From assembly GCA_050084515.1 (NCBI GenBank), contig CM114271.1, positions 10,354,001 to 10,418,000 on the forward strand: a DNA stretch of 64,000 bases. The letters are read 5' to 3'. Positions 1 through 64,000 of this stretch are shown piece by piece; within the stretch, counting starts at the first letter, position 1, and every line of letters starts with the position of its first letter. The notes under the pieces were generated by a model. The model saw nothing but the letters and a program-made list of their open reading frames with translations. It was not told where the DNA came from and did not search any database. The position numbers and the translations under genes are program-made. The stretch is from Blasia pusilla. Lineage: Eukaryota.

Positions 1-98
1 ATCCGACATCTCGGGATGAAGTTACACTCGAACAACCTGTTGACTCTCTATGCTATCAACGCGATAGAACTCTACCTACGTCAAAATAAGATGTGACA
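1..98. repeat. Terminal fragment of an LTR, same family as 46744-47404
   Basis: 1-98 (ATCCGACATCTCGGGATGAAGTTACAC...AATAAGATGTGACA) aligns by eye with 47307-47404 and ends in CA. Confidence 0.75.
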
Positions 99-130
99 AG
101 ACCCACAGGTACCCCACCAAGCACTAGTAC

Positions 131-4033: not shown

Positions 4034-5110
4034 TTATAAAGATCCATTTTCAAATACCTCCAGGACCTGGTAAGGTCCCATCCAATTTAACTTTAGATTC
4101 CCTGGATATTTCAGGCGTCGATTGTCATAGAGCAAGACTAAATCCCCTCTTTGTATTGAGTGTGATCTCAGGTTTTTTTCATACCACTGCTTTCTTTGCA
4201 GCTGAATGGTCTTTGTATGGACCAGAGCAAGATGTCTTGCCTCCTCCATTGCAACCAAGTCCTTGTTCCTCCTTCCAATGACCGCCGACTCTTCTTCGTT
4301 TCTTTCTTCTTCCAGAATTTGGTAGGTGGGCACATCCCATTCGATTGGAACAAGGGATTGAATTCCATATGTCAAATAGAATGGTGTGTACCTTGTGGTT
4401 ACTTTCTCTGCTAAGTGATAGGCCCAGAGTGTAGCAGGAATCTTGGTATCCCAATGATATGCATAGGTGTCCGTCAGCCGATTGAAGAGTCTACAAATCA
4501 GCCCATTGGACTTCTCCATTAATCCATTGGCCTTGGGGTTGTACGAGGTTGTCTTACGGCGCTTGATTAGGAAGTGGTAGGTCAAAGCTTCAACCTTCTG
4601 GTTGAGTTCCCCGGTCGCTCACCAATTCCAGAGCACAGCCATATCTAGTAATAATCATTTCATACAAAAACTTGGCCACTACCTCACTCTCATCCTTTCG
4701 CGTTGCGACTGCTTCCACCATTTTGGTGCAATAATCCATAGCGATTAAAATATACTTCTGGCGTGTCTGTTGGGTGGCGAGTGAGATAGGACCCACAAAA
4801 TTGATACCCCAATTCTCAAAAGGGGTGAGGGGAAGAATAGGCACCAAAGGCCAACAAGAAGTCGCTGTCGGTCTTCCTACTCTTTGACAAGCATCACACT
4901 TTTGGATGAAGGATCTGACATCCCGATACATTGTGGGCCACCAATAGCGTGCGGCAAGGATTTTCTTGACAGTATTCCTAACTGCATAATGCCCTCCGAA
5001 ATCCTCCGAATGCATAGCAATAATCACCCGCAAAACTTCCTCCGTCTCCAAACACCCCTTCTATATTCTCCATCCGCACCAAGCTTGAATAACACATCAT
5101 GGCAGATCTC
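4034..5110 (-). pseudogene. Gypsy integrase (HHCC, rve core, GPY/F), disrupted
   Basis: H..GGHY...YWWP...CDACQ; WGINFVGPI; LVSDRGT; YNPKANGLME; WMGPYQV. Confidence 0.93.
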
Positions 5111-6800
5111 ATAAGGCCCTATCTTGTGCAAGAATACTGCCCATTCTTCTACTGTCATAGGAGTTGGAAAAGTAAGAGTGATTAGAAATCTTAGAATGTC
5201 TTCGTACGAAGATCTTCGCAGGTCCTCCTTGCTAATCAAGAACAACTTTTCGTCTGGAAAGTCATCTTCAAGGGTCTTTGTGAGATCGGTGTTTGGCGTC
5301 CTTAAGTATGACAGAAAGTCCGCATTGGTGTGGATCCTTCTTGCTCTTTTCACCACATCAAATGTAAACTCTTGTAACAAGAGAATCCACCTGGCAATTG
5401 TGCCGGACAAATCTGCTTTGACCATCAGGGCACGAAGCGCAAAATGATCGACATGAAAAACACAAGGGTATCCCAGCAAGTAATGCCAAAACTTCTTGCA
5501 AGAAAAAACCATGCCCAAGGCTTCCCTCTCCGTAGTAGTGTTATTCTGCTCTGCGACATAAAGTTTTTGCCCTGCATAATAGATAGGGTAATCCTTCTTC
5601 TTCTCATCTAGTTGACTTAGTACTACACCAATTGCAAACAACAAGGTGTCAACATACACTTGGAATACCTCGGTTCAATCCGGGGGACAAAGCACAAGAG
5701 CTGTCGTTAGTGCCTGCTTCGACTCCTCAAATGCCCTCTGACATGTTGGCAACCACTCCCATTCCTCGGTCTTCTTCAACAGGTTTGTTAGAGGCTTTAC
5801 CTTTAGTGCATAATCCTTGATGAATCGGAGGTAATACCCCACATGCCCCAGGAATCCCCTTAGCTCACGAAGATTCGTGGGAGCTTCTAACTCCAAAATT
5901 ATCTCCACCTTTGCCGTATCTACTTCAATACCGCGTGACAACACTCGATGCCCTAGTAGGATACCTTGTTTCATGGCAATGTAAGACTTCTTTAGGTGCA
6001 ACGATAGCTGCACTTCTCGGCATCAAGCCAGGGTTAGCTCTAGCTTTTGCAAATGATCTTTGGCCGAGCTGAAGACACAAAAGTAATCTAGGAAGCTCTC
6101 TATGAATCTTCGTAAATAGTCTTGGAAGATAGCAATCATCATTGTTTGGAAAGTGGACGAGGCATTACACAACCCAAAAGGCATCACCCGATAGGAAAAA
6201 GTACCCCAATCCGTGGTGAAGGTAGTCAGGGCTCGGTCCCTCTCTCTGATAGATACTTGATTGTAACCGAAATACCCGTCCAAGAAGATATAGCGTTCAT
6301 GGCCACCCACCTTATCTAAAATAGTGTCCGTAAAGGGTCAGGGGTGGTGATCCTTGAGGGTGGCCTCATTAAGCTTCCTATAATCTTGACATACTCGAAT
6401 CATCCCTGTCTGCTTCTTCGGAACAATGACTATGGAGGATACCCATTCACTACTGAGCACCAGATAGATGACTCTAGCTTCCAACCTCTGATCAATTTCT
6501 TCTTTGACCATTAAAGAATACTTGGGTTTAACCTATATTGACGCATTCGCACAAAAACTGCTTCAGGTTTCAAATCAATTCTATGCTCTCCATGCTTGGC
6601 TGGCACTCCTCTCATCTCATCCATGGTGTAGGCAAACATGTCAAGGTATATGAAAGAAAAGTTCGAAAGAAAAGTTTTATATTGTGAAAGTTCAGAAGCA
6701 GAAAAATCTGTGGATAGATGCAAAGCCTTAGTGTTAGTGATAAGGACTTCTTGGTAGTCTTTCTCTTGCACCATCTTCTCTGTGAACTGATATGTAGTGA
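5110..6800 (-). pseudogene. Gypsy reverse transcriptase and RNase H, disrupted
   Basis: FLDGYFGYNQV, YRVMPFGLCNA, FLDY(D), LRGFLGHVGYY; RNase H YVD..FAIGVVLSQ, TTEREALGMVF, VDH, ARWILLLQEF. Confidence 0.93.
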
Positions 6801-32109: not shown

Positions 32110-33190
32110 TATGGAGGGTTTACCCGGAGTGGTGCGAGGTTTTGAGGGTCTCCACGTGAGAGACCACCTCGATCTCCTTCTATGTCGACTTCAGACAAGG
32201 GGGAGCATGTAGAGAAGTGTGTTAGTGGTCCACCATACACATTGAGTGGTCCTATCAGTTGGGCGTACGAGATGGACGACCAAGGTAGAGGGCCGCATAG
32301 GTTTTTGGATACTGTAGGCACTATAGAGCTACATGACTTCATTGCGGAGTTTAGGAGTTGGTGTGACTCATAGCGGGCTAGGAACTCTAGAGAGTTCAAC
32401 CCGTTTACAGTATGGAACGGTATGTTCCAGCATTTAGAGGGGGCGCCCATGATGATTACCATGAGTTCTCCCACAGATATGCTCAGGAGATTGAGGCATG
32501 GCGACTCTACTATGACCCACACTATGTGTCATGGACGGAGCCGTTCCCAGGTGAGGAGGAGGAGTCAGGAGAGGCTACTTCCTCTTCCACTAGTGATGTT
32601 TTAGGAGGGGTAACTCGCACTAGAGCAGTTGCACCGTCTAGTTGGGTTTGTCTCAAGTTGAGTTCTTTGCTGAGTTGAGGACGAGCTACCAGGGGGTACG
32701 AATGGAGAATTTGCGGAGCATCCATGACTTCCAGAGGCGCCTAGGTGAGAGTTTGCGTGAGGCTAACACTCGCTTGTGCCAGTTGATCAACGTCACTCAG
32801 GGGTGACAGAGGCTTAGGCTATCTAGTCATGGTACGCAATGTTGGACCGAACCCTGCGGACACGGGTGCGGAAGGGGATTCTTCTTATGGACACCTCCCC
32901 TACGTTGAGAGATGTTTTTAGGACTTCCAAGAACATTGAGCGCAACATGGCGGAGGAGAGCGTAGCCACCATGGGTTCTGGGCGAGAGCGGTCACGATTG
33001 CCTGTACCACTAGTGCACAAACGTGGATTCCAAGATAGGTTGACTCTGACACCGCGAGCACAGGGAGGATACCGGGAGGCCGTGCCACAAAGACCCGCGC
33101 CTTCATATGCGGCTTAGCAGCAACCGCCTACAATTACTTGTTGGTCATGTGGCGGAGCCCATCGTCAGCGCGATTGCACTTGTTACGGTT
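32110..33190 (+). pseudogene. Gypsy-type gag with CCHC zinc knuckle, truncated paralogue of the gag at 41020-42090
   Basis: GGFTRSGARF start, EFRSWCD...FNPFTVW, LRTRVRKGILLMDTSPTLRDVF, CWSCGGAHRQRDC at 33138-33176. All are mirrored in the 41-42 kb copy. Confidence 0.85.
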
Positions 33191-33204
33191 ATACACGTGT
33201 GCCT

Positions 33205-37875: not shown

Positions 37876-39259
37876 AAATTACTCACCACAAGTGTTTCCC
37901 AAGTGCAAAGAGAAAACTTTATCTCAATAGATATGTGGTAGTACTGACGTATAGTATGGTGCAAATCCGATCCAAATTTTTTTTTTGTTTAAAGGTGATC
38001 ACAAATAATGTATACAGTAATATATTGAATTTCTTAAAGATGGCAACGCAAGAGTAAGGAGTTATTTGAAAACATACTTGTAAGGATGTTGACAATGTTG
38101 CAGAGTCGCACGTCTCAATAAACCGAGGTTGAGTCCTATGCATAACATGCTGGAAGTTTTTAGAAACACTCATAAGTTAAGCATGATTTGTGGAAATAAC
38201 ATGATTAGTAGCAATGAGGCCTCACAATATGACAGGTTGAAATGTTGTGTGCAAGCCGGACTTCTTTTTAAGTGTCTACAATGAAGCGATTGCGTAAACA
38301 ACAGAAAAAAAATATATGGAACAAACACATTGAAAATGCAGGATTATAGCAAAACTACAAAAACTACACTTCTCTATTAATAAACACAAGTCAAGGCATT
38401 GAAACTATATGTCTCCTCTACTTTTTGCTCTACTCCATTGAGCTATGTAGGTTATTTCAATTCTATGAATAGGCCACTCTCTCTCTCCCGAAGTATCAAG
38501 AGATACATCTTCCTGGCAGCAAGCCTTTTGCCTCTTCTCACACGTCAAGCAACCCAACTTGATCGGCCTCTAGTTGTGATTTCAACACATATCCTGTCTC
38601 GAAGCCCTCCACCTTGCCAAAGCTTCTCGATCGGCCTGTATTTTTGGAAGCTCGAAGCCCTTCGCCCAGCCAAAGCTCCTCGCCATTTCTCACACATTGA
38701 AGCCTAACCAATGTTTCTCAATTGGCCTCAACAACTACTTCCCGCCGTGCAGGTTCATCTTTCCCGCCTAGTCCGATCCCCTTTCTTAGGTTTTTCTCTT
38801 GGCAAAGTGCGCTCGTAGGTTCAGTGACACAAAACTGGGGTTTTTTTTTAGTTCGGAGAATTAAAGCATATCCATAATACCTTACCCCATAAGAAAAACC
38901 AGAGTTGATATATGGACCAATACACAATTGACACATGTAGTTTCGAGTATAATCCAAAAAATCCCCCTTACTTTCTTGGACATCTTCCGTGTATTCCCGG
39001 AGAATAAATCATGCCCTATTGTTTTTATAGGTGTAGTCGTAAATAAAAAATACCCTTAAGTTCTTCCACAATGCTTTAAAAGTCTTCCCCGGAATCCAAT
39101 TAAAAAACCCTATACTTTGTTGTACGTGATGTGTATATTCCGCAGAAGTGAGACCCCTCGAGTGTTAGCCACAGAGTTAGTGGAGTTGAGGGAGGCATGA
39201 GATCTTAAGTTCTGATTCAGGAGAGCCCTCCCAAGAGGCAATTTGGAGCAGAGCGGCGA

Positions 39260-40360
39260 AGTGGGAATCGGAATTGAAGTTTTGGTTCACCAGCACGGGC
39301 CAAGTCACCTAAAGGGCACGGCATGGCACGGTGTGGCAAGGGTGATAAGGATCTGCAAAAGGGATTTGGAACTCAAGTTCCATTTCGAGCACAATTAAGC
39401 CAAGGCATGGTTCAACTACATGGTGGTCATCTTGATGGCGTAGCAAAGATCACGGGGCGGGAGTGACAAGGAAGCAAGGAGGATTTGGAACTCAAGTTCC
39501 AATTCTACCTGAGTTGGAGAACAGTGGAGCATCTCAACTGCAGTTGACTACTACAACGTGGCACAATGCGGCGGCATAGGGAAGTGAAGTGAGGAGGCAG
39601 TTGGAACTTCAATTCCAATTCCGCTCTTCAGTTGTGAGTCTTCTCTACAGGGAGGTGGGGAGGATAGGAAGGAGAAAATTAGAACTCTAGTTCCCATTCC
39701 ACTCCTCAGTTGTGTTGGGTTCTCTCTACATGGAGGTGGAGAGGATAGTGAAGGCAATAAGAACTCAAGTTCTGATCCCTTTGGCGCGACCCAAGAAGTG
39801 AGGTCGGCGATACTCCCAATTTCAGCACAGCATCTAGAGGAAGAAGAGAAGAATTGGAACTCAAGTTTCCATTCCGGGGATTCTCAAGTGGGGCGCGGCT
39901 TTTCTTCAAGTGCAGCAAGAGGAAGAAGGAAGAATCGGAACTGTGCTTCCTATTCTGTGGCTTGTTCAAGTGGGCGCGGCTCTTTCTATCAGGTGCGGCG
40001 CGACGCAGCTTATGAAGCAGAGAGGAAGGAGTGAGCAATTGGAACTTAAGTTCCAATTCCATCATTTGGCTGTGAAGTTAGGAAAGAAGGAGTGAGCCAA
40101 GAGCATTTGGAACTGAAGTTCCAATTCGGTACTCTTTCAGGTGAAGGAATTTCATACGTCCAAGTTTCAAGCGAGTTGGAAAAGCGGCGCAACAATCACA
40201 ACCTAAGTTCCCATTGGGATGGTCCGTAGCCCGTTTCTATCCCGAGGTAGTCTCTTTTGGTGCGGGCAAGAATCGGAACTGAAGTTCCCATTCCCACCTT
40301 AGTCTCCAGTAGATTTGGCGTTTGTGGCGCGGCGCAAATCAGAACTGAAGTTCCAATTCA
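39260..40360. repeat. Spaced array of about 13 quasi-palindromic motifs TGGAACTNAAGTTCCA
   Basis: Copies at about 39269, 39367, 39486, 39602, 39681, 39761, 39855, 39936, 40040, 40108, 40200, 40274 and 40341. Confidence 0.85.
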
Positions 40361-41019
40361 CATGTGAGTTTGGCGCAGCAAAGCATGGCGGAGAAGTGAG
40401 TGGGAGGTGAGGCGGGTGAATCATGGGTACTCGAGGCAGGAGAGGTGTCGAAGGTGAGAGTGGATGTGAGAGGCGTTGAAGGCACCAGAAGCCATCTTGC
40501 TGGCGGCAAGATGGCTTGCTGGCGGCATCTTGTTGGCGGCAAGATGGCGGGCGTCAGGACTTGGCAAGCTGATGTTGATCCAATTCAGCATAACTTCTAG
40601 GTCACCCATCCCAATTCTATTCCTCTAGAGTGTGCTTAACTGGAGAGTTCTTTTGCATGTTGTGTTACCAACACACCCATAAGGAAGTGATGGAATTCAC
40701 TTACCTTGCTGCTTATGGAGATGTTTGAGGGGTGATCTTTGGATGACACACATTGTGGATTAGTGCATTGCTGAGTGCACAGCACTACCGCGACTATTGT
40801 AGAGAACTTGGTGGGATGGATGTATACCACACTAGTTGGGAGTGACTTAGTGTGCGGGCTATTTGCCACGTGTTGATCTCAAGTGAGATAAGTGGGGGCG
40901 TGTCCACAGTTTGGGCATTGTCTAGTGCAGAGCTAGTGGCTCGGGAGTGAGTCATAGTAATTTGCAAGTTTCACCACTGCGCATCCACAAAGTATTGGGG
41001 AGTGTGGTAGTGGTAGAAG

Positions 41020-42090
41020 TGGTGGAGGATCTACACGGAGTCGGGCTAGGTATCGAGGGGTCCCACACAAGGAACCACCTCAGCCACGAGTTGTAGTTTC
41101 TCCGGAGGTGACATGAGCGGATTCGGAGTTACTCGAGAGGCCATAGAGTGTCGCGAGTGTTGCCACACCGTTGTTGTGGGACATGGATGATCGCAATACG
41201 TATGGGTCCACGAGGGGACCCCAACGGTTCTCAAGCATGGTGAGAACCATCCAGTTGGATGATTTTATGTATGATTTTGATAGTTGGTGCGATGCACAGA
41301 GGATGCAGAACTAGAAGAGATTCAACCCCTTTATGGCGTGGAAGGGACTTTTTCAGCATCTAGAGGGCCCTCCCATGGATGATTATCACAAGTTTTGGAT
41401 TCTTCATGATGCAAAGATCGAGGTGTGGAGACTATTTTGGTCTCTAGGATGTGTGTCCCTCACAGGGTGTGCGATGTATGATATGGCGGTTGTAGTAGCA
41501 CCTACTAACTGCACAGAGGAGACACTTGGAGGAGTTGTCGACCCGAGTCTTACGAGTGTGACCAGCCACGTTCAACCCGTTGTTTGAGTTCTTTCGAGAG
41601 TTGGGGAGGAACTATCAGGGGGTGAGGACCAACAAGCTGAAGTTGATTCATAAGTTTCAGCAGAGAGCGGGACAGAGTCTTTGAGAGGCCTATGCATGGC
41701 TCCGACGGTTGATCACAGAGACTCAAGGTGTGACGGAGAGGCAAGCGGTTCAATTCTGATATGGGATGCTAGAACTCAAGTTGCGGAAGAGAGTGCGAGA
41801 TGCAACTCTCTTACATGTTAGCTCACCTACTCTCAAGTCTGTCTTTTTGTTGGCAAAGCGTATTGAGCTCAACATACTTGAGGAGAGAATTTTGACGACA
41901 TGCGTGTCACCTTTGAGGGAGACAATACGAGTGACGGTGTCTCCATCAGTGCCACAATGCACTTCTCAAGATAGAGTCATGGGACCGAGGGCTACAAGAG
42001 GATACCGGGAGCCAGGACCAGTTCAGTCATATGCTGGGCAGTAGGGCTCAGGAAATTTTTGTTGGACATGTGAAGGATCACATTGTCAGC
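41020..42090 (+). pseudogene. gag with CCHC zinc knuckle, decayed
   Basis: FNPFMAWKGLFQHLEGPPMDDY, LRKRVRDATLLHVSSPTL, CWTCEGSH(C)QQDC at about 42060-42098. Confidence 0.85.
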
Positions 42091-42949
42091 AAGATTGTAG
42101 ATAGTAGAGTGGAGTAGGCAACACCATCAACTGTATATGAGGCGGCCCAAGGGAGGCCACCCTTACCTTAGTGTGAGCAGTGCCAGAGATATGGGCACAC
42201 ACGTGAGAGATGTTTCGAGCTCCACCTCGAGGTGCGCCTAGAGGGAGGTCGAGGTACGTGGAGGTGGCAGAGAACAAGGTGTAGGAGGTCAAGGACGTGG
42301 TGGAGGCAGGACCTCACCACTTGCCAAAGCGAATGTAGCATTTGCATGAGAGGCAGCTCTGGCGAGGATTTCTCAATTGGAGCAACGCCTTGAGGATATG
42401 ATGGCCCAACAGGCATCCACATCAAGTGCAGGGGCACGTTGACTTATGGATTGGCTCAAGCCTAGAATATGGTGGGAGATCTAGGAGGTATGGGATTTTT
42501 GTGCAACACCGCACAGGTGGATGCAGATACAGTGGTTACGAGAGGCGCGGTGAGAGCTTCTGAGCCACGAGGATCTGATGTGGAGTTGGATTCCTAGAGG
42601 GGAATGGCTGGCAGGTAGGCTAGACTTCCCCAATCTTTCACATTGTCGGAGGCTCTTTGGACCCCATCGATGGTCCCTAGACGGCCTTTGCGGAGTTTTG
42701 TTGTCATAGATGCGGATGCAGTTAGAGGAGCGGGTGAGGCGAGTACCTCTACCAGGCCTATGCAACATTCGACATGGCCTAGTACTGGCACGTTACGAGA
42801 GATGGCGACAGCTTTGTGTAGCATCCCACTATTTACGGCCTGAGATTTTTTGATATGTGGAGGTTGACCAATTGATGTTTTCCGGTTGGCGGCGACGCTC
42901 TGTGAGAGTGATGAGTTTGGTTCTTCTATTGCTCTTTGGACCCCATCGA

Positions 42950-43230
42950 TGGGATTGCGGAAGTGTGAGATCACTCCATGTCCATTCCAAATTCATACTT
43001 CACTGGGAGGCACATACCCGACACAGTTCATGACTTGCAATGAGATTGGAGTGAGGATTCAACCCAATCATCCTATGGATAGTGCGATGGTATGGACAAG
43101 AGGGGTTGTGACACCGGCCAAGTCTTATGATGTTTTGGTAGGGGCTACCTTATTTTATCCTCTAGGGTTCACACTTGAATTTTGGGAGGAGACATTCTCC
43201 TATCGACCAGGTTGGCAGTCGGGTGAGGGA
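42950..43230 (+). pseudogene. C-terminal half of a retropepsin-type protease; catalytic DSG/DTG not seen
   Basis: VVTPAKSYDVLVGATLFYPLGFTLEFWEE resembles the 'YDvLlG..L..lg..lD' retropepsin C-terminal motif. It sits directly after gag. Confidence 0.6.
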
Positions 43231-43599
43231 CAAGCCAGTCAGCTACCCGTGCAGTATGCACGGAGACTTGATGGTTTACTCCGAGGGTCAACAACAGTTA
43301 TTGTGGCACATTATGTTTTTGGCATGGAGATTTATAAGAGGGAAATGGTGATGCAAAGGATATTCCTATAGAGGATAGTCCTGAGGAGTGGCATGCGATG
43401 ACGAGCGTGGCTACATTTGATGGCGATACTTCTTCAGCTTTGTGGGGTATGAGAATCGATTTGCAGAGGAGAGCAGAAGAGCTTGTAAGGTAGGCATGGA
43501 GCCAAGCCTATGCTCTAGAGTTAGACGGGACATAGTTACCACGTGCTCTTGGAGTGGAGACGTTGACACCCTTGGACATCACACCGATTGTGTGGCAGT

Positions 43600-44530
43600 A
43601 TCCCAAGGAGGGTGTACATATACTAGATCTCTTTGGAGGGATTAGTACAGCGTTAGTTGTAGTGTTGCAAGCCAGAGTATGAGTACAGCAGTACTTGTAT
43701 ATTTGGAGGGATGAGACTGCACACAGAGTCTCATTACGTCATGTGTCGAGACTAGTCCAGCAATATCCTCAGTTATTGCTAGTGTTTGCAGTTAGGGGAT
43801 ATCAGCATGTATTGGAGGCTGACATTTCGTTGTTGGGGGTGCCAGATCTGCATAGGGTTGGTCTGATACACTTGGTGGTTGCAGGGTGGCCATGTTAGGG
43901 TCATTCTTTGGCGGGTCGTGGACTTGGTTGCAAGACCCGAGGTTGGCCATGTTTTGGCAGATGTTGCGAATTCTTTGACACTTGCAGACTACCCAACGAT
44001 GTTCTCCAACTTGCATTTTGGAGAACGTCCCACTGTTAGGTGACACTTGAGCCCGAGTGATGGCGAGTGTAGATAAGGTGCGGTTGTGGATAGGACCGGC
44101 AGTGATGTTGGATGTAGCAAGTGTTGGATCGTGCGCACACCGTCCATGATTGTGGTGGACTAACCTTTTACCATCTGAGTTATTGAGATGGGCTTATGAT
44201 GGAGTCGAGAGACCATCACTACTTATAGTGGATGCAATCTTGGATCCATGGTGGTGATCTCAGGTTATTACTCGTGATGATGTACCACCGTTAGCAGTCG
44301 CCAATTGTGTGGGCCAGCAGAGGGCAACATTGCCTACATTGGTGAGTTTCCCGTCATCTCATGCTTTTCATCGGGGAGGACCAGGCATGATATGGGATGA
44401 CCACGCAGGTACACTGGTGGAGCCCAACGCCGATGAGCGAGAATGAGCTATGGGGTTCTCTACAAGTATGACGGCGGTGCCTATGGTGGCAGAGGCATCC
44501 CGCAGACATGTATTGGGTCATGCTCTGGAC
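43600..44530 (+). pseudogene. DNMT3-like DNA (cytosine-5) methyltransferase catalytic domain, with 7 stops and one frameshift
   Basis: Motif I ILDLFGGIST (43620-43649). Motif IV LVVAGWPC*GHSLAG (about 43872-43916). Motif VI ILENV (44015-44029). Motif VIII AHRP*LWWTNL (44135-44167). Motifs IX-X ERE*AMGF..SMTAV....SRRHVLGHALD (about 44435-44530). Confidence 0.92.
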
Positions 44531-45159
44531 TATCTTACTCGGGTGTTCAATCTTGGTTTGGCTGAGTAGCAACAGATGCGAGAGGTGTTTATGACATTAC
44601 GTCCACTTTGCAATGCAATGACTACCGGGATGGGTGAGACACTCCCTGGGGGCGCGATGGTGATGGAGAGGCATCCACGGACTTCATGGGACATGTCAAA
44701 AGAGCATAGAGAGATGAGAGTTCATTTCGCTGATGTAGGACATAGTGGAGTACCTAGAGAGTTGGTGTCTGATTTGGGAGCGCATGTTGCTGCTCCAGAG
44801 GTTGCTAGTTAGTAACCACCACCCTCCTCTTCTCCAAAGGTCACGAGAGAGATTGCAGCGCGGTGGCATGGTGAGAGTGATGAGGAGATAGTTTCGGGTT
44901 GGCACATATCTGCCTATTTGTGTCTGTTAGCTATGTTAGGTCAGTAGGAGGCATCCACCCCAGGAGGGAGGTTAGATGGTGAGTCCTCACATCTAGATGC
45001 TAGTGAGGAGTTGATAGGAACTGGAGACATCCACGATGATGAGATGGTCTTGGAGTACCTGCGCATTGGTGTCTTAGTAGCATGGTGGGTGCTAGAGAGC
45101 GGGAGGAGGATCAAGTGGGAGGGGAAGCATGTGCTTTGAGTTTGGGAGGATGGACGAGT

Positions 45160-46260
45160 GCGGATGGTGCTGCATCCTTTGCAGCGAGCACGAGTTGTGT
45201 GACAAGCTCACGAGGAGTTAGGGCATTTCAAGTCAAGCGTACGTATAGCTTGATTCAGATCAAGTATTGGTGGCATGGTATATATACTGATGTTCAGCAG
45301 TTTGTAGCCAGATGCATTGTACGTGATAGGGTACGGGCATCGTTCAATGCTCCGATACCACACTTGCATCCTTTACCGACCATGGGATTAGGATATCCCT
45401 GGAGTTTAGACTTTGCAGGGCCTTTACCATTGACAGGATGCCATAGTTGGTATGTGTTGGTCATGGTGGAGCAATTCTCCAAGTGGATGAGTGAGTTGGT
45501 AGCATGTCCGAATAGGTCGAGTGAGGGAGCCGCTTATGCATTTCTTGATAGAGTGCTTAGTCATTTTGGCATACCAGCAAAGTTGTTGACAGACGAGGAA
45601 ACAGATTTTAGGCGTGACTTTAAGGCTTTGTGTGATCAGGCACGGATAGATCATTGTACAACTTCTCAAGATCATCTAGAGGCAGATGGTTATGCAAAGA
45701 GAGTTGTGCAGACGAGGAAGAGAGGATTGCGCAAGTATGGACTACAGAGAGGACACTTGGGAGATTGGGACCTATAGTTGTCGTGGTTGGAAATGGGTTA
45801 CCGCTTCAGTCGGCAGGCATCCTTGGCATCATTTTCATCGTATTTCTTGCTCTAAGGGAGAGAGCCAGAGTTATTGTCATCGATTCGACAAGATGTGGTT
45901 GAGGTACTTGACCTTGAAAATCCACACGTATGGATGCAAGCGTGTTCTAAGTGGGCTAAGCTCTTTTGGAGAGTCATGCCTATGGTGTTTGAGAACCTGG
46001 CTATCGCTCAACATCGCGATACTCTAAGATACACAACTACGCATGGAGGAGGCTATCGACCAGGGATTCGGTGATTCCATCATGGCAATTATGTCTACCT
46101 ATAGCAGACACCGCCAATGACCTTGGACGTGATGGCAGGATGTACTATTCTACGAGTGCGAGAGATTTTACCTTCAGGAGTCCTTGTTTTAGAGGGTCGT
46201 TATGATACCGTTTGAAAAGATCATCTGCGTAACTGTGCACCATGTCATGGTCTGAACGTG
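45160..46260 (+). pseudogene. Gypsy integrase, decayed
   Basis: AHEELGHF..KRTY...YWW...C; WSLDFAGPLP; LTD; EADGYAKRVVQT. Confidence 0.92.
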
Positions 46261-46306
46261 GATGGGGATTGATCTGAGCTTGACAGTTATTCCTGTAGGC
46301 TTGAGA

Positions 46307-46444
46307 TGCATGTTGTGTGGGTCTGCCAGAGGCATAGCCACGATGCTAGTTTGTGATGGGTGTTCTCGAGGATGGCATATGTCGTGTTTGACGCCGCCTC
46401 TTGACTTGGTTCCTCAAGGACATTGGCTTTGTCCCATATGTTCA
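46307..46444 (+). CDS. PHD finger (C4HC3) at the integrase C-terminus
   Basis: CMLCGSARGIATMLVCDGCSRGWHMSCLTPPLDLVPQGHWLCPIC has all eight zinc ligands plus the conserved W. Confidence 0.95.
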
Positions 46445-46625
46445 TAGGTGTGATAGGTACATATAAGATGACTCTTGATGTTATGGATTGCAAGAAGGTG
46501 ACTAACAATGGAATGACATAGCACCCGACCTCTTGATCTTAGCACCGAAAAGGTGCATAGCATTTATACTTGTTTTGTTGGCTATCTGGAGTTAGAGGGA
46601 CCTAACCACCAACTAGGGGGGCGAC

Positions 46626-46741
46626 TGAGGTTGTCCGATTGTTCATGTGTAGAGATATTAGGATTCATATCTAGATGGATCTTAGACATGTGTGTGCATG
46701 ATAACCGAAGTACCTTGGCAGCGATGTGTATTCGCACGACA
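46626..46741 (+). repeat. Short 3' LTR remnant, homologous to about 47987-48100
   Basis: Follows the PPT. GGTTGTCC.AT.GTTCATGTGTAGAGAT...GCACGACA is shared with the copy ending at 48100. Confidence 0.7.
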
Positions 46742-46743
46742 AC

Positions 46744-47404
46744 TGTTATGGTAGAAGAGGCGTAGGGTGAGATAGTATCAAGGTTGTCGTCTTCATACAC
46801 ATCGCTACAAAACCCACATTGCTGGTCACATCTACATACCACACAACAGCGATCTTCCCCAACATACGGGTATATCCACACATAAATGAAACATACTCAT
46901 GCATATACACTGGGATCCCACAACAAAATCAACGGCTCACCTGGCCTAAAACTCCACTCATGAATCTACATCGGCATATCAAACCACATCCACCCTCTTT
47001 TATGAGGGAATCCAGACGCTAGCACCCACCCTAACTCATACAGACCCACACATGTCTATGCAAGAGAGGCACTCCTAAGGCTCAACATGAGAAAGATGGC
47101 TTGAGAAAGCCATCTCTCTCACTTTTATATGCTTGGGAAGAACCGAAAAGCTCTTCCCCCAAAAAAAGCCCTACCAACGGTAACCTACGTGCATAGGTTA
47201 TCGGGTGACCGTTGACTCGGTCAATGAGTCACCTGACGGACTAAAACCAAAATATGGAAATTTCCATAAACAACATTCCTGACGCAATAGACCTATTTCC
47301 AACCTCATCCGACATCTTGGGACAAAGTTACACCCAAACAATGCGTTGACTCTCTATGTCGTTGACGCGATAGAACTCTACCTACGTCGAAATAAGATAG
47401 TACA
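46744..47404. repeat. Probable solo LTR (about 660 bp), same family as 1-98; no TSD seen
   Basis: TG...CA ends, with the right end homologous to window positions 1-98. Confidence 0.65.
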
Positions 47405-48100
47405 AGGCCTTAGAGGGGTCTTGTACTTCCCTATTTTGAGAGGTCACATGTGACCTGCTCTTAGGAGATGACCTACGAGTGTAGGTCCCCCTTCCCTTTA
47501 TGAGGAGTGGAAACCTTGGAAAGGTTGACCTTCCCAGCCATGGATGACTCCACTTGGACCTATAGGGTCATGGGTTAGTTGGTAGTTGGTCTCATGAGGG
47601 GACCACATGTGTAGTTCTTAGGGAGCTAGTATGGATGTACTATAGGTGGGTAGTGACCTACTAGGAGGGAGGTGACCTTTGTGTATAGGTCACCCATGGA
47701 GGTGCCCAGGGGGGTATACTTCGGCTGAGGCTCATTTGGGGCTCATCTCCTTAGGATTGCAGACCCTTGTTGGGATTCGTGATACAGTACGGCTTGCATG
47801 TATTGAGCCTGGATTCTCTCTTGAATAATGGGCTAGGAGCGATCAATAAGTAAGATCACACATTTTGGGAATCCTTGTGTATACTTTCTCTTGCTGTTAC
47901 ACCAGGGTGTATCTGAATCATGAGTATGGTTGTTTGGATGAAGCACGGTTGATTGCAGATTTCATCAGAGTTTACATGGCATATTGGGGTTGTCCAATCG
48001 TTCATGTGTAGAGATGTTAGGATTCATAGCTAGATGGATCTTAGACATGTGTGTGCATGACAGCCGATGTATGTTGGCATCGATGTATATTTGCACGACA
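47405..48100 (+). repeat. LTR fragment of the DNMT-element family, abutting a LINE endonuclease
   Basis: The last ~115 bp match 46626-46741 and end in ...GCACGACA. Confidence 0.6.
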
Positions 48101-48476
48101 TTGGCGACCTTGATCCACATGAAGTATTTCTTATCATCAATGTCGGCTATGGAGATAAAAGGTTGTAACCATGGTGCTACCAAGCATGTCAAGCCACCGT
48201 GTCCTTTTTTGTTGCTATTTGTGAGTGAGTTGTGGATAGCTAAGACCTACAAGTCCTCTGTATTAGGAATGCGGTTGGAATCATGTTCATGTGTTTCAAC
48301 AAAAAAGATAAGGTCCAATTTTGTTTCCAAATATGTAATGCCATTACCTCTGGACTAGAATGGTCCTCCATAATTGTGAATAACTGCGTGAATGGATGGG
48401 TTGATAATATCCTTCCTATCCACCATTCCTTATAGAGAGGTCTTGTCAAGGAGGTTTGTCACCTCCAAGGCCTGGT

Positions 48477-49508
48477 TGTCGTGCGCCTACTCTCCTTGAA
48501 CGTTAATCTTGTTTGTTGCGGAAGCGTGCGTTCAGTAGGTCACGCTCTCAACGCTGATCTGCATCCAAACACGCACTTCGGTTAGTCGGGTCTTGGATCA
48601 ATCAGCGGGATTACTTTCCGAGTTCTCGTCTCGGACTCTCTCTTCAAGCTCAACCTTCCTAGTTTTGCGGTTTCCAACACGGGCAAGTCTCGAAAGACTT
48701 GGGATAGACTTTCAGTCGGTTCGGGAACTCAAACGGCGTTTAGCGCCTAGCGGTTCCAACTGTCCGATGAACACCCAATGAGTTCCTCACCAAGACTCGC
48801 ACGAAGTGAATCTCGGGTTGGAATCCAAGTGTGGCGTACAAAGTCCACTCCCTTGGATCAGGTTTGGGTTTCGGGTTTCCGCGCCAAACTCCCGTTTCAT
48901 CCCGTGCCTCTGAAACGCCGTTTGGCACCCAAAGTGGGGTTTCGTTTCCCGAGACATCTCAGAGAAGGTACTCCCCTTACTAGTACTTCTGGGGATCTCC
49001 GGGGGCCCCCTAAATTTAGGGAAAGACACCCGGGCCTCTCCAATTGGCCCTCAACCCGATTGCTCTCTGAATCGTTTTTGGCCAATATCTCAGCCTGTAC
49101 TTATGCGTTTGCTGAGATCTTTGGTGCGTTGGAAGCATCTTGAGATCATCTTTCCAACGCGCCCTTACTTGTCCCAAACGCATCTTGGAGCTCAACGTTA
49201 TGGTCCTAAACACAGTCAGATTTTCCCAAACGCTAGTCATGTTCCAAACTGGTTCTCACCTCTTTGCCAACCAACCTCCAAGACTCAACTCATCTCAAGT
49301 CTCGGCTCGCGTTTGGGTCTAGGTTTCCTGGTCGCGACCACTAACGCATGAAATGCACAACTCTGTTCCGCGTTTCGTCTCTTAGACTTTTCCAAGAGAC
49401 TCTTCGAAACGCCTCTCCAAAGCGCAAACCTCGCGGCGTGAGTTCCTTTGAGTTCTGATGTTTCGTTTGGCGCGTATTTGGTGTTGTTTGGTTATGAGGG
49501 TCGCGACA
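48477..49508 (-). repeat. Solo LTR (1032 bp), TSD CTGGT
   Basis: TGTCG...CGACA termini, with CTGGT at 48472-48476 and 49509-49513. Homologous to 14997-15995. Confidence 0.93.
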
Positions 49509-50612
49509 CTGGTTCTCAGTTGTAGAATTGCTAATTCCCTAGTTGGAATCCAAGTTTTTGCTCACTGCCCCTCTTGGTGCATAGTTGTGTCTTCTAGGTA
49601 CTCATGTCGTGGCCTTTCCTTCCCTGAGTTCATTCCAAAGACCGTTGTTGCGGGCAGCTAGAACCTTCTCTCTTTCAATAGCGAGTGCTGCTCTTTGCTT
49701 GGTGGTCAGATCTAGGAAGATACGGATAGTGGATCCTTTAAGGATTTCTTTAATGCAAAGGATGGCCAACCTCATTTCCATCGCTGGTCCCCGTTGTGAG
49801 GGATCAAATTATACCAACATTGGTGCTGGTCAGTCCCCTATTCCTTTCCCAAGTCTGATCCCTGTGAAGGTGACTGCTGGTGTGACCCCCTAGAGTTGTG
49901 AAGACCTTCTCTTGCCAAAGTGAATTCCAGTTTTCTTCCTTGGTAAAGTGCAGTCCCATGATAACTAAATTGAGTTCCTTGGTTTTCCTATCCTGGAATT
50001 CTAGGACCTTATCTGATTCTTCTTTTGTTACCTCTTTGGCTACCTGTGTTGCAACCTTAGTGATTTGTGTTGTGGACGTATGCTTGCCCAATATTTATGT
50101 CCGGGTTCTAACAGGATTTGCAAGGTTGTTCTTAGTTAAACGATACTCTTGCATTACCTTCCCAAGCTGAGTGTTATCCTATTTGAAACACGCAACTAAG
50201 TCCTTCTTCAATTGTAGGTTCTCGGCCCTCAAAGTGACCAGCTCTAATTCCAGAGTTGTCTTTTGAGCCGTCCATTCGAGGAGGTTTGATTCCTTGCTGG
50301 ACATCCATCTACCCTGCTCTTCTTTTGCTGCTTCCATCATTGTATTCCATGCCAGCATCTAGCACGCCTGAAAGCTTTCCCATTTTCCTTCTAGTTCAGA
50401 GAACCGATTGGTGATGGATGCCACTTCCAGATATGGTATAACCTCTGTTGAATGTGTGAGAGCTGCGTGTAGTCATTCCCAGTCACACTGCCTCATTTTT
50501 TCCTAACATAGTGGCGAGAGTTTGATGTGATCAATTTGCGTGAACCATTTGATCTCACTGATCGTCCATTCTCCCTACTCTTCGTCTACTTGTGGGAACG
50601 ATCCTTGATACT

Positions 50613-56601: not shown

Positions 56602-57878
56602 TGTCGTGTCGAGAATCTTTCTTCGAGCAAGGGCGGGCCTTCTAGCTGCGGTAGATGCGGTCGATGCAAGGTGAACTCTCTAATAAGTTCTCCTTTTTCA
56701 ATACAAAATTATGATGTACACTCTCCATTCTCTCACGACAAGTATCACGAATGGAAGTGTCGAGGCGATCACTTCTTCGTAACATCGGACCCCGAAATTC
56801 CTAACTATAAAATCCCTATAAACTATTTTACGTTTGTACACGAGGAAGATAGCACCACTAGTGTTAAACCCTACTTGAGCAGGCCTATTGACATCCATGG
56901 ATCGCTATATAAGGACATACAAAGTACAATCCCATGTCCTTCCATATGTGACGATAGGAAGAATCACCGGAGTTGGAGATTGCATGACCTGGTTCATGAA
57001 CGCCTCCCCAAAGTGATAAACTAAATAGCGAGTGAACCAGTGCCTATCTACAAAGAGTACCTTGACATGGTAAGGATTGAGGAAAGGAAAGTCGGGCACA
57101 GCTCGTGCTCCACCCCTATCCATGCTTGACAGACATTCTCTACTCTCCTCAAGAATGGGTTTTGGCGGAGTTATTCTCCCAAGAGGGGTAATCCACTCTC
57201 ATTGGGAAAGTAACAAGCCAAAACATCCGCTATTTTAGTATGACTAAACTCTTCTACGGTGACAAACCTCTCATCCCCCCCACACACACGCACCACACTC
57301 TAGAAACTTCTCGAAGAATAGACCATGATCAAGTTACTCTCCCAAGAGGGGTGATCCACTCTCATTGGAAGAGCAAGCAATCCCAAAGCCATACACTCAA
57401 GAGAGACACGAGAGACTCAAGATGTGGAATAGAAGGTAATGAACCCTTGAAGGTCCCTCCTCTTTATATACTCACAAGGGATCCACAAGAGTACGAAATA
57501 GAGCTTATCTTATCTTGTGCCACATGGCTTCCTCTCAAGGCTTAGCCAATCACATTTTGACACAAGTAGATTTCCTCTTATCTCTTCCAAAATATCCTCT
57601 TTTACCCACATGATATTTTCCAAATTACCCCAACTAACCTAGCCACCAACCAAGACTACTTTTGCTTTTCATTAAAGCAACTACTTTACTTTTATAAAGT
57701 CCATCTTTTATGTATTACCTCCTTTTCCTAAAGTTGGGCCCGCATAAAAGAAGCACCATAAAGAGGTTTAAACATAAGAATCTCCTTTTTCTAAGCCAAT
57801 TTACTTAATACTAATGAAACTCTATCTAACACTTAATGACGAAGGAGTTTACACACTGATTGATTTTACTATACGACA
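56602..57878 (-). repeat. 3' LTR (1277 bp)
   Basis: TGTCGT...ACGACA termini. The first 183 bp are identical to 63818-64000. Confidence 0.93.
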
Positions 57879-57971: not shown

Positions 57972-60960
57972 TCAATCGAAATCAAGAAATCCTTCACGTC
58001 TACGGAAAATCTTGACCCTTTTTCCTGCAATGGGCAGCTTGAGAATTGTGCCATCTAGTTCACGTAGTTTGTAAGTGGCATTGTCAAAAGCAAAGACTAC
58101 AACATATGGACCAAACCAACGACGTGCAAACTTCTTAATTGTACTATGTTGGTTGTCAAGGCTGTTGTCGTGCACCAAGACCCAATCTCCTTCTCTTATC
58201 GGCTCCTTCCGAAGTCGATGAGTTTTGTCGAAGCGCTCCTTATTTTTCAACCTTGCTTCCTTCATTCGACTAACGCTTCGCAATATCCTCTTCCCCCCGC
58301 TCTAGTGCTTTGCATTCGAAGTGCTAGGAGCTCTTCCCTATTGAGCCCGTCTTCCCACGACAAACCCATCCAAGTGGGTATATCTCCTTCTGCTGGCATT
58401 ATCGGCTTTTGACCTGTCATCAACTCTGTAGGCATGAACCCTGTAACGGTGTTGTGAGTGGTTCTATCTGCCCATAAAGCAAATGGAAGTAATCTAGGCC
58501 AATCACCATAACGATCTCCACACGCCTTTACCAATGCTTGAATGATTGGCGGATGTCCCATTTCGCTCTTGCCGTTTGCCTCCGGATTCATGGAGGTTGT
58601 TAATCTCAACTGGACTCCATATCTCCTGAAGAACTCTCGTGCTTCCTCCGCATTCAACTCACCTCTATCTGCACGGATTCTCCCGACACTCCCATATCTA
58701 GCAACAATATCCTCTAGAATAAAACGACATATAGGCTCTGTTGTTTTAGCCCGTAAAGCCCTCCCTTCTACAAAGTTGGACAACTCTTCTCATGCTAGGA
58801 CCAGGTAACGCATTCCCCAAAGACCTAGTGGCATAGCAACTAGATCTTTAACCCATTGATGATGAATAGACAAAGGATACGTCGATTTAAGTCCATCTCT
58901 CACTCTGATTTTTGATTAAAACTGACATTCAACACACGACCCAACATATCTCTCAACATCCTTATATAGGCCTTTCCACCAATACCTCTCTTTTATCTTG
59001 GTGAAAGTTGCCCAAGTACCTCTGTGACCTGCCCATAAAGAATTGTGGAATTCTTTGAGCACTTCCATTTTTGTCCCATTGTCATCCACCACCCTCAAGG
59101 GCATTCCATCTTTCCTCTTTGGCCTTTTCCAAAGATATCCATCTTGTAGTAGATAGCCATACGCCTTGTGCCGAATCTCCTTGAAGAACTTTTCTGTCCA
59201 CCCTCCATCTCTTTGCAGAGTGCTTAAATAGCGCCCAATTTCTTTTAACCTGCCCTCATACAAATCCTCTTTGAAGGCTAGAACATCCTCTATGCCACCT
59301 CGTTCTTGAGATAACACTTGCCACACATGTGCATCATCCTCATCTATCTCAATTGCCTCCATATCTTCTTCTTGACTAAATCTAGCTCTAGACAACATGT
59401 CAGCTACTGAGTTCTCTTTCCCAGCTATATGCTTCAATTGTGGATTCAAGGACCTAATGTAGGCTATCCAACGTAGCATGGCTATATCTGGAGTCGTACA
59501 ATTCGCAATCATACCTAACAAAGGTAGAAAATCAACCTCAAGCAATACATAGGCTCCCATAAGATACTCCTTCTCAGCTTTCATTGTAGTTACAACTCCC
59601 CAAAGCTCCCTCTTTACCTGAGGATATCTCTCTGCTGCGTTAAAGTAAGTGTACGAGCTCCAAACCTTGTCGCAAATCTTCTTCCTTCCGCGTCATCCTG
59701 CCCAACTGCCCATCCGATAGCAATAGGGCTAGTGTCCACTGTGATGATAATAGGTCGTCCGCATTCGTAGCTCATTTGTCGTAGAACTGGTGGCGACTTC
59801 AATGCCTCCTTCAACTGCATCATTGCTGCTCTTTGCTTCTTCTCCCAAGTGAACTTCTTCTTCTTTCTCAACAACTCATACAAAGGATCAGATATGTGGC
59901 CAAAATGAGGAATCCACACCGATAGAACACACAAGCTCCTAAAACCTTCTCACTTCGGTGGCGTTTTAGCATTCTCGTATCCTCCCAATGACATCAACTT
60001 TTTCTTTGGATTTGGTTTTTCGCCAAAGTCTCCACAAAGATGACCCACTACCACGATCCGAGGAACCCCAAAGCACTTTTCTCCGTAAAGAGTAAGATTG
60101 ACTGTTCTAGTCTTGTTAGGATCATATCCACATCTCGAATATGATTAGACACAAACTTTCTACACCCATCTTTCACAACCCTCTCAATCCTATCTTCTAT
60201 TGCACACCCCTTTATAGGGATATCATCTACAAAAGGAATGGTTTTCTCAGAATGAAATCTCTCAAGATCTTATTCATTGCACTCTACATGTGAGTGACAG
60301 AATTTGTTGCTCCTTGAGGTAATGTGCACATTCTTACAAGCCCAAGTGGAGTGCGCATAGTGGTAATATCTCTACTCTCTGTAGCTAATTGGAATTGATC
60401 ATATCCCGAGTGCAAATCTCCTATAGAATAGATAGCACGGGCTGCAAAAGCTTCTGCGACTTCATCTATTCTAGGCCCTGCTCCCATATTTCGAATGGTT
60501 ACCTTATTTGCCGGTTGCATATCTTGAATGAACAGGAGAGCTCCTGATTTCTTCGGGCATGTGAACCATCGACTCGAGTAAGGCCCCATAGATGGCTTTA
60601 GAATACCCATCTGCATCTTCTCCTTCAATAACTCAATCAGCTTGGGAATCATAGCTCGTGGTAATCTGGTATGGGTTTCAAATCCCAAGGCACATGTGGA
60701 ATGTGAAAATTACCATCGGTGCCACCACACTCGTGTCTACACAACCAATTTCTTGTGTAGTAAAAGAGAAAGCCTTACCATGTCTCCTTAACATCTCGAA
60801 AGCATTTTCTTTCAATTTCGTGAGAAACTCACCCCTCCGATTTGCAGACGATCTAGCGTCTCTTCGTGAACTTGTGTCCTATCTTCTTGACATCCCATGC
60901 AGACTTGGCTCCATTGATGCACGTTCTACTTGTCTCCCACAACCCTCTGGTAGTTGAGTA
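57972..60960 (-). pseudogene. Gypsy RT, RNase H and integrase, frameshifted
   Basis: DLHSGYDQF, LPQGATNS, FVDD (about 60223-60234), VDTSPIAIG, H..AGHRG...YWW..C..C, RADRGE, NPEANGKSE, WFGPYVV. Confidence 0.93.
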
Positions 60961-63817: not shown

Positions 63818-64000
63818 TGTCGTGTCGAGAATCTTTCTTCGAGCAAGGGCGGGCCTTCTAGCTGCGGTAGATGCGGTCGATGCAAGGTGAACTCTCTAAT
63901 AAGTTCTCCTTTTTCAATACAAAATTATGATGTACACTCTCCATTCTCTCACGACAAGTATCACGAATGGAAGTGTCGAGGCGATCACTTCTTCGTAACA
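63818..64000 (-). repeat. 5' LTR (partial)
   Basis: Identical to 56602-56784 and adjacent to the PBS. Confidence 0.95.

Follow-up and report, generated by a model that had tools for sequence, protein, structure and literature searches.

In animals, the ADD domain of DNMT3A, DNMT3B, and DNMT3L is a PHD-like reader of histone H3 that is unmethylated at lysine 4 (H3K4me0), and in chromoviruses a chromodomain sits at the C-terminus of the integrase. Here we analyze a 64,000-nt stretch of DNA from Blasia pusilla (the window; all coordinates are positions within it), in which positions 41201-46625 are, judged by alignment to related proteins, a dead and internally deleted copy of a bryophyte Ty3/Gypsy-type long terminal repeat (LTR) retrotransposon family. 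The copy ends in a genuine PHD finger that directly follows the integrase, and its relatives carry this PHD finger as an in-frame extension of the integrase, together with a DNMT3-like cytosine-5 methyltransferase domain in the same polyprotein. An original prediction, made from the letters of the window alone, had proposed that the element pairs a chromatin reader with a DNA methylation writer. We lean toward the view that the PHD finger would tether the integrase to chromatin and thereby bias insertion.

The ADD-containing DNMT3 enzymes resemble this family in that an H3-tail zinc-finger reader is encoded together with a DNMT3-type catalytic domain; they differ in that the family has a canonical single PHD finger, located about 1000 residues away on the integrase, and neither an ADD nor a PWWP domain. 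Published accounts of the closest transposons are cited here from the text passages covered. The C-terminal chromodomain of chromovirus integrases directs insertion to heterochromatin (Gao et al. 2008, via citing papers); common to both systems is a Gypsy integrase that carries a histone-tail reader at its C-terminus, which probably helps to choose the insertion site, whereas the chromodomain is associated with H3K9 methylation and the PHD finger of this family with what is likely to be the unmodified H3 tail. KnitGypsy-Dnmt3 of Klebsormidium nitens (de Mendoza et al. 2018, PMC5890265) carries a DNMT3-type methyltransferase inside a streptophyte-lineage Gypsy polyprotein, as does the window at 43299-44752, but it comes from a Klebsormidium alga, whereas the relatives of the window copy are bryophyte (Marchantia, Riccia, Calypogeia, Sphagnum). 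The term "PHD" has zero occurrences in the main text of that paper (its figures and supplements lie outside this count), and there were no Klebsormidium sequences among the matches of our homologue searches. A 2026 preprint (10.64898/2026.05.21.726589) names "streptophytes (Gypsy-DNMT3)" and also describes EpiLTRs, which combine an adenine methyltransferase, a DNMT4-related cytosine methyltransferase, and a chromodomain; these are likewise LTR retrotransposons with a DNA methyltransferase and a chromatin reader, for which the window's family has instead a DNMT3-like domain and a PHD finger.

PHD fingers are also established in Gypsy elements of green algae. REM1 of Chlamydomonas is a PHD-bearing Gypsy (Perez-Alegre et al. 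2005, via citing papers), Gypsy-7a_cRei has a PHD among its domains (Craig et al. 2022, PMC9940879, Fig. 6 legend), and the PHD is a common accessory domain of C. reinhardtii transposons (Craig et al. 2021). These elements share with the window's family a green-lineage pol with a PHD finger: the C. reinhardtii protein P0100 (P-numbers are our working labels for related proteins) is 47% identical over integrase and PHD, with the PHD after the integrase. The domain order of algal relatives is reverse transcriptase (RT), RNase H, DNMT-like domain, integrase, PHD, and a tail, whereas in the window's clade the DNMT precedes the RT and the PHD is terminal. The passages covered that describe the Chlamydomonas PHD-Gypsy elements do not mention a DNMT-like domain. 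Ginger1-9_HM, a cut-and-paste DNA transposon of Hydra with an Ulp1 protease domain (Bao et al. 2010, PMC2836005), has a PHD C-terminal to a Gypsy-like integrase but no RT, gag, or DNMT. A full-text search, which leaves most subscription journals and supplements uncovered, found no text on a pairing of PHD and cytosine methyltransferase in a Gypsy element or on this family in bryophytes. Because both components, a PHD finger in Gypsy elements of the green lineage and DNMT3 in a streptophyte Gypsy element, have already been published separately, the finding is less novel than first presented; the bryophyte membership is new to the literature covered.

Results

The PHD finger lies in a stop-to-stop open reading frame (ORF) at 46256-46447 on the forward strand, which translates to 63 residues and closes with a stop codon at 46445-46447. 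The original prediction had called a complete C4HC3 PHD finger here and had proposed a PF00628 search as the check. This search gave a match above the gathering threshold (E 4.3e-11, 43.1 bits against a cut-off of 24) that covers ORF residues 18-62 and the full profile (positions 1-47 of 47). None of the eight zinc ligands is missing, and their spacing is canonical (C18, C21, C33, C36, H41, C44, C59, and C62; nt 46307-46441), and alignment of relatives by tblastn places the PHD coding frame at 46268-46444 (+). The AlphaFold2 model of the domain, for which 12 relatives were included, has a mean predicted local distance difference test (pLDDT) score of 79.1, with means per 10-residue block of 75-80 for residues 11-30 and about 88-91 from residue 31 onward. 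A Foldseek search of the model against the PDB returned 50 matches at E ≤ 0.001, and the top matches listed are PHD fingers or PHD-containing proteins. For the crystal-structure matches listed, the root-mean-square deviation is 0.6-1.4 Å over 46-50 columns, and the model superposes on solved PHD fingers at 0.6-1.2 Å over 47-49 columns. We conclude that the domain in the window is a genuine PHD finger.

That this PHD finger follows an integrase, as had been claimed, was borne out. The upstream ORF at 45043-45777 (+) matches rve (PF00665, E 3.2e-9) and Integrase_H2C2 (PF17921, E 1.1e-7), so that the Gypsy-integrase hallmark of an H2C2 zinc domain plus a DDE core is present by Pfam, and the C-terminal domain, with its CAPCH motif at 46234-46248, extends to 46266. 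Relative to P0001, the window integrase is 45-70% identical by tblastn and contains 8 stops and one frame change. Integrase (frame 1) and PHD finger (frame 2) are contiguous but lie one base out of frame, with one residue of the homologues missing between them. The proposal that the PHD finger takes the place at the integrase C-terminus that the chromodomain has in chromoviruses therefore stands for its position and for relatives, in which the fusion is in frame, but not for the reading frame of the window copy. There was no match to the chromodomain family PF00385 in Pfam scans of the window or of the relatives scanned; the PHD finger occupies that place. A separate insertion that brought the PHD finger to this site was considered and is ruled out by the collinearity, which holds to within one residue, and by a conserved 19-residue spacer. 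Because it is collinear with the homologues to this precision, the PHD finger is part of the same element.

The layout is consistent across relatives. Homologues of the integrase ORF comprise 14 proteins at 62-73% identity, with the liverworts Riccia sorocarpa and Calypogeia fissa and the moss Sphagnum fallax as the named close species. PF00628 is found in eight of these, whereas the other six break off before the CAPCHLP motif at the end of the integrase; in every one of the eight homologues that extend to the integrase C-terminus, the same frame runs on into a PHD finger. P0001, P0008, P0009, and P0013 terminate 1-6 residues past the PHD, and P0009 is a complete ORF in a transcriptome assembly listing. 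A wider search for longer proteins with the integrase-PHD part of P0008 gave 196 matches at E ≤ 1e-10, 120 of which are listed, the named ones being chlorophytes (Haematococcus, Tetrabaena, Pleodorina, Chlamydomonas reinhardtii, C. eustigma, Monoraphidium, and Scenedesmus). Precomputed Pfam annotation places PF00628 in 116 of the 120 proteins listed; three of the remaining four fit a C4HC3 regular expression and the last, P0077, ends 27 residues past CHLP. In 106 of the 120 PHDs listed, a spacer of 19 residues separates the CHL motif from the first cysteine of the PHD. None of the outcomes that had been named as contrary to the prediction (a PHD that is absent, out of frame, or part of a separate insertion) was seen in the relatives. 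These alignments indicate that, in the window's family, the PHD finger is ancestral and extends the C-terminus of the integrase in frame, and that the integrase-PHD layout is general in a large Gypsy clade of green algae and bryophytes. In a FastTree phylogeny of 130 integrase rows, which is to be read with care, the window integrase falls in a set of 17 rows with Shimodaira-Hasegawa (SH)-like support of 96. Besides the window, this set contains seven DNMT-RT-integrase proteins and nine partial proteins in which no DNMT was detected (four of RT-integrase type, three with integrase, and two with integrase-PHD), and the named partial proteins are bryophyte. The nearest row to the window is P0001 (71% identity).

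A search of the ESM Atlas with P0008 residues 600-1033 returned one cluster (score 0.95, 80 members) with Mollusca as its commonest phylum, in which PHD is present in 99%, rve in 94%, and Integrase_H2C2 in 66%. This is a lead only; integrase-PHD fusions may also be common in animals.

The residues of the PHD finger bear on the kind of histone reader that it may be. H3K4me3-reading PHDs have a cage tryptophan two residues before the zinc-binding histidine. At this position the window has glycine (SRGWH), as do 113 of 118 family PHDs; the H3K4me3-reader cage tryptophan is thus absent from the window PHD, and no entry of ING, BPTF, or TAF3 type is among the sequence and fold matches listed. The nearest solved PHDs by sequence are those of CHD4, KDM5B/KDM5A (PHD1), PHF12, DPF3, KMT2D, ATXR5, PHF21A, BAZ2A/B, UHRF1, and AIRE. 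By entry title, the best fold matches include complexes with H3 or with the unmodified H3 tail (ATXR5, BAZ2A, UHRF1, and the BAH-PHD of ORC1b), and DPF3, DPF2, and MOZ are also among the fold matches. In the nearest solved readers, an aspartate directly after the third zinc-binding cysteine (Cys3) and a methionine three residues before it line the H3 groove. The window has both; the aspartate is present in 110 and the methionine in 103 of the 118 family PHDs. The loop between Cys2 and Cys3, whose acidic residues in KDM5-type readers are found close to the H3 tail, has at least two acidic residues in 93 of the 118 family PHDs and none in the window PHD. The sequence comparison and the model point to a putative reader of the unmodified H3 tail, and since the nearest solved PHDs are readers of this kind, the result fits the H3K4me0 idea of the original prediction.

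The second component of the proposed pair is the methyltransferase. The DNMT region of a Sphagnum protein gave 29 protein matches, 25 with PF00145 and many from Marchantia polymorpha, and the Marchantia protein P0015 carries PF00145, with DNMT3A/B/C accounting for 25 of 25 solved-structure matches. In P0047 (2358 residues), Pfam marks a protease (663-711), DNMT (953-1137), RT (1443-1596), RNase H (1660-1789), integrase (1925-2090), and PHD (2300-2344); the order in the window is the same minus RT and RNase H. P0026, from Marchantia, joins protease, DNMT, RT, RNase H, and the N-terminus of the integrase; together with P0015 and P0016, it is one of the gene models by which the family is represented in M. 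polymorpha. On the evidence of these relatives, we read the polyprotein of the window's family as gag, protease, DNMT3-like domain, RT, RNase H, integrase, and PHD. The claim that the element pairs a chromatin reader with a DNA methylation writer accordingly holds in that both domains occur in one element and in single polyproteins such as P0047; it does not hold for the window copy as a working unit, which is dead and lacks RT and RNase H.

DNMT is marked by precomputed Pfam in only 25 of the 120 proteins listed. With the DNMT regions of P0015 and P0040 as BLASTP references (E ≤ 1e-5), DNMT-like regions were recognized in 118 of the 120; in 112 of the 120, such a region is accompanied by a C4HC3 match. 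Two DNMT-containing domain orders occur among 161 collected proteins: RT-DNMT-integrase-PHD in 106 and DNMT-RT-integrase-PHD in five. A crude regular expression for motif IV (G[WGS][PE]C[QN]) found GWECQ in 49, GWPCQ in 13, GSECQ in two, and no match in 56 of the 120. The Glu-Cys of GWECQ (for example in P0047), in place of the conserved Pro-Cys of motif IV, is an unusual replacement. The DNMT-like region of C. reinhardtii P0100 is 25% identical to the Marchantia DNMT (E 5e-18), with the motif IV region missing from the alignment. By their sequences, many DNMT-like regions of the relatives look degenerate.

In most algal-type relatives the protein extends beyond the PHD. A tail of at least 100 residues follows the PHD in 108 of the 120 PHDs listed and reaches about 270-335 residues in P0040, P0050, P0106, and P0110. 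The tails that were read directly share motifs resembling those of S-adenosylmethionine-dependent methyltransferases (DPWxGTG ... TSPWF), and P0040 gives a weak match to D12 N6-adenine DNA methyltransferase (PF02086, E 0.16) that scores 12.1 bits, below the cut-off of 22. If this match is real, algal-type elements would carry cytosine and adenine methyltransferases in addition to the PHD.

Searching the window with relatives by tblastn gave a single collinear forward-strand series that runs from gag through the zinc knuckle, protease, and DNMT-like domain to the integrase and PHD (Table 1). When Pfam was run on read-through frames with stops written as X, the 3333-residue frames gave only the PHD and Integrase_H2C2, and 600-residue pieces gave only the integrase. 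Decay has put the DNMT, protease, and gag regions beyond the reach of Pfam, so that they were located by tblastn to relatives instead. There was no Pfam match to a protease on the window itself; window positions 42931-43251 align to P0047 residues 685-791, which overlap and extend past the Asp_protease_2 match of that protein. In the DNMT-like region, we located an FGG motif (43623-43640), Pro-Cys followed by a stop (43881-43898), ENV (44021-44038), and the RxR-type LWWTNL (44150-44167). P0008 residues 1-501 (RT plus RNase H by Pfam, about 500 residues) have no counterpart in the window, and 105 nt stand in their place. The Gypsy order of gag, protease, RT, RNase H, and integrase is thus incomplete in the window copy; it is complete in P0047, P0008, P0009, and P0013. 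The copy is dead because it has 28 in-frame stops, at least eight frame changes, and a stop codon directly after the catalytic Pro-Cys of the DNMT, and nothing in it is functional.

Table 1. Features of the retrotransposon copy in the window.
Feature	Position	Strand	Evidence
Gag (capsid-like), decayed	41201-42098	+	tblastn to Marchantia P0015 residues 5-314, 47-56% identity, two frames, 4 stops
Gag CCHC zinc knuckle	42172-42255	+	P0015 residues 334-360, 61% identity; CxxCxxxGHxxxxC pattern
Aspartic protease region	42946-43308	+	tblastn to P0015 residues 653-772, 48% identity, no stops
DNMT3-like cytosine-5 methyltransferase domain, decayed	43299-44752	+	P0015 residues 777-1263, 50-53% identity, two frames, 11 stops
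Internal deletion junction (RT and RNase H removed)	44753-44857	+	P0015 alignment stops at 44752; P0008 resumes (residue 502) at 44858
Integrase: N-terminal region, H2C2 zinc-binding domain, DDE core, and C-terminal domain closing in CAPCH	44858-46266	+	Pfam; tblastn to P0001
Frameshift between integrase and PHD	46267	+	Integrase frame ends at 46266 (P0008 residue 968); PHD frame starts at 46268 (P0008 residue 970)
Linker, C4HC3 PHD finger (46307-46441), and stop	46268-46447	+	PF00628; 56-61% identity to PHDs of P0008/P0001; model and fold
3' untranslated stretch with G6 run (46616-46621); possible polypurine tract and end of internal region	46448-46625	+	Direct reading and contig ends; boundary tentative

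The original prediction had also stressed that the PHD finger is free of stops while its neighbors are decayed. This is literally true but not significant. The 28 stops fall within 1633 aligned codons, or one per 58, and at this rate the chance that a stretch of 59 codons escapes is about 0.36. Moreover, the PHD finger is less conserved than the integrase that adjoins it, at 61% against 70% identity to the nearest relative, P0001. The stop-free state of the PHD finger is therefore no evidence of preservation.

The claim that the PHD precedes a polypurine tract proved only plausible, as a G6 run lies about 170 nt past the stop and no LTR pair was found. Neither a repeat search nor blastn (word sizes 9 and 7) recovered terminal repeats, and no similarity was detected when 38000-41250 was compared with 46440-50500. 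The copy is probably truncated or old. A 116-nt direct repeat (46626-46741 and 47985-48100) has 89% identity between its two copies, which lie 1359 nt apart. It starts with TG, immediately past the G6 run and the CGAC that follows it, and could be the start of an LTR together with a fragment of the second LTR.

Part of the stretch is contained in five of nine sequencing runs listed, none of which is listed for RNA. Contigs of four public runs (X1-X4, from two organisms) were placed on 43300-46700 at 80% likeness or more, which gave 1696, 5727, 10936, and 1192 pieces, respectively, with a likeness of 80-99%. The family is high-copy in both sequenced organisms. In all four runs, most copies diverge from the window after 46620-46624, just past the G6 run, which fits an internal-region boundary at this point and a different or missing LTR in the window copy. 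The 46 nt at 46579-46624, which include the G6 run, have the highest contig depth of the region, with loose consensus ends in four of four runs; in other copies, both sides of this segment are joined to sequence unlike the window. Just upstream of gag, degenerate repeats at about 39200-40400 include a tandem repeat at 39836-39996 (period 81 nt, two copies, 80% matches).

The window contains further repeats. An isolated gag fragment of the same family at 32269-33201 (+) aligns to P0015 residues 9-314 with 40-60% identity in three frames; its DNA is 58.5% identical to 41213-42097, and no pol follows it. Direct repeats of 183 nt at 56602-56784 and 63818-64000 are 100% identical and lie 7216 nt apart, the second being cut by the end of the window. 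They flank a distant Gypsy pol on the reverse strand (58391-60096; 22-28% identity to the family studied here), and this repeat pair and pol are probably a young LTR element of another family. A Gypsy remnant with RT, RNase H, and integrase at 4578-6529 (-), at 28-36% identity, also belongs to a different family. Finally, 47307-47406 is 84% identical to window positions 1-100 and is an unclassified dispersed repeat.

Discussion

We find it somewhat probable, by analogy with the chromodomain of chromoviruses, that the PHD finger of this family anchors the integrase to chromatin and so biases insertion. In active copies, the PHD finger would tether the integration complex to nucleosomes through the unmodified N-terminal tail of H3. 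Binding to this tail could bias insertion toward chromatin without H3K4 methylation, much as the chromodomain directs chromoviruses to heterochromatin, and the DNMT3-like domain might then methylate the element's own DNA.

Several observations weigh against this interpretation or limit it. The tether role itself rests on analogy. The loop between Cys2 and Cys3 contains no acidic residue in the window PHD and no more than one in the bryophyte PHDs listed, so that specificity may differ. In the bryophyte-type polyprotein, DNMT and PHD are about 1000 residues apart and would probably end up on different mature proteins. At the frameshift between integrase and PHD, the sole change listed from the four sequencing runs is an inserted T, which occurs in X3 only (depth 18.8 of 40.4). 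Neither a target-site duplication nor an LTR pair was found for the window copy, which leaves its ends undefined, and the tree carries SH-like support values, with no bootstrap.

A different role for the same pair of domains would be a direct coupling of reader and writer, in which the PHD finger senses H3K4me0 and directs or licenses the element's DNMT3-like enzyme, as ADD does in animal DNMT3, such that methylation of the element or of its landing site would be confined to suitable chromatin. The two domains are together in nearly all of the relatives listed and have been kept together through both domain orders; in the RT-DNMT-integrase-PHD order, the DNMT adjoins the integrase-PHD part, and one mature protein could hold both. 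The resemblance of the PHD to readers of unmodified H3 and of the methyltransferase to DNMT3 is also in line with such coupling. However, the window's family has its DNMT between protease and RT, a long way from the PHD. No motif IV pattern was found in 54 of the 118 DNMT-like relatives listed, and the PHD is kept in 54 of the 56 proteins without this pattern in the list of 120; P0100, for example, lacks the motif IV region in the alignment yet has a PHD. The PHD is thus kept where the methyltransferase looks inactive, and an allosteric interface cannot be inferred. We consider coupling of this kind unlikely.

The PHD finger might also have a role that does not involve histones, such as binding of a host factor, nuclear import, intasome assembly, or DNA binding, in which case its likeness to H3 readers would reflect descent from a captured host PHD. 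In the source passages covered, PHD fingers are a common accessory of unrelated transposons (CR1 long interspersed nuclear elements, Rehavkus, Chlamys Penelope-like elements, and Ginger1-9_HM), and the scarcity of acidic loop residues in the window and in the listed bryophyte PHDs would agree with such a role. Nevertheless, the aspartate and methionine of the H3 groove have been kept in most family PHDs, and the closest structures include H3-tail complexes, which makes a purely non-histone function improbable in our estimation.

Exaptation of the PHD ORF by the host as a small chromatin-reader gene at this locus, for which 63 stop-free codons inside a decayed element might be cited, is scarcely credible and was rejected, given the sizable chance of escaping stops, the lower conservation of the PHD than of the integrase, an equally open stretch of 244 codons in the integrase, and an ORF with neither start-codon context nor promoter evidence.

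Returning to the PHD finger as a tether, one may ask how it and the methyltransferase would work together in the clade as a whole. We offer as a tentative and rather doubtful proposal that the DNMT3-like domain and the integrase-fused PHD form a conserved chromatin module of an ancient chlorophyte/bryophyte Gypsy clade, in which the PHD would read the unmodified H3 tail to place the new copy and the methyltransferase would mark it. If true, this module would be a transposon-borne analogue of the reader-writer logic of ADD-DNMT3, assembled independently of the host enzyme. If the PHD finger does steer integration, the family would provide a second, independent case of a Gypsy integrase that uses a histone reader to choose landing sites, and one in which a different mark is read. 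Nearly all relatives keep a DNMT3-like region, which makes the clade a natural system in which to ask why a transposon would be equipped both to read and to write repressive chromatin, and Marchantia, which has many copies, is genetically tractable. For genome annotation, PHD or DNMT gene models of bryophytes and green algae that lie beside an integrase or RT are parts of transposons rather than epigenetic regulators of the host.

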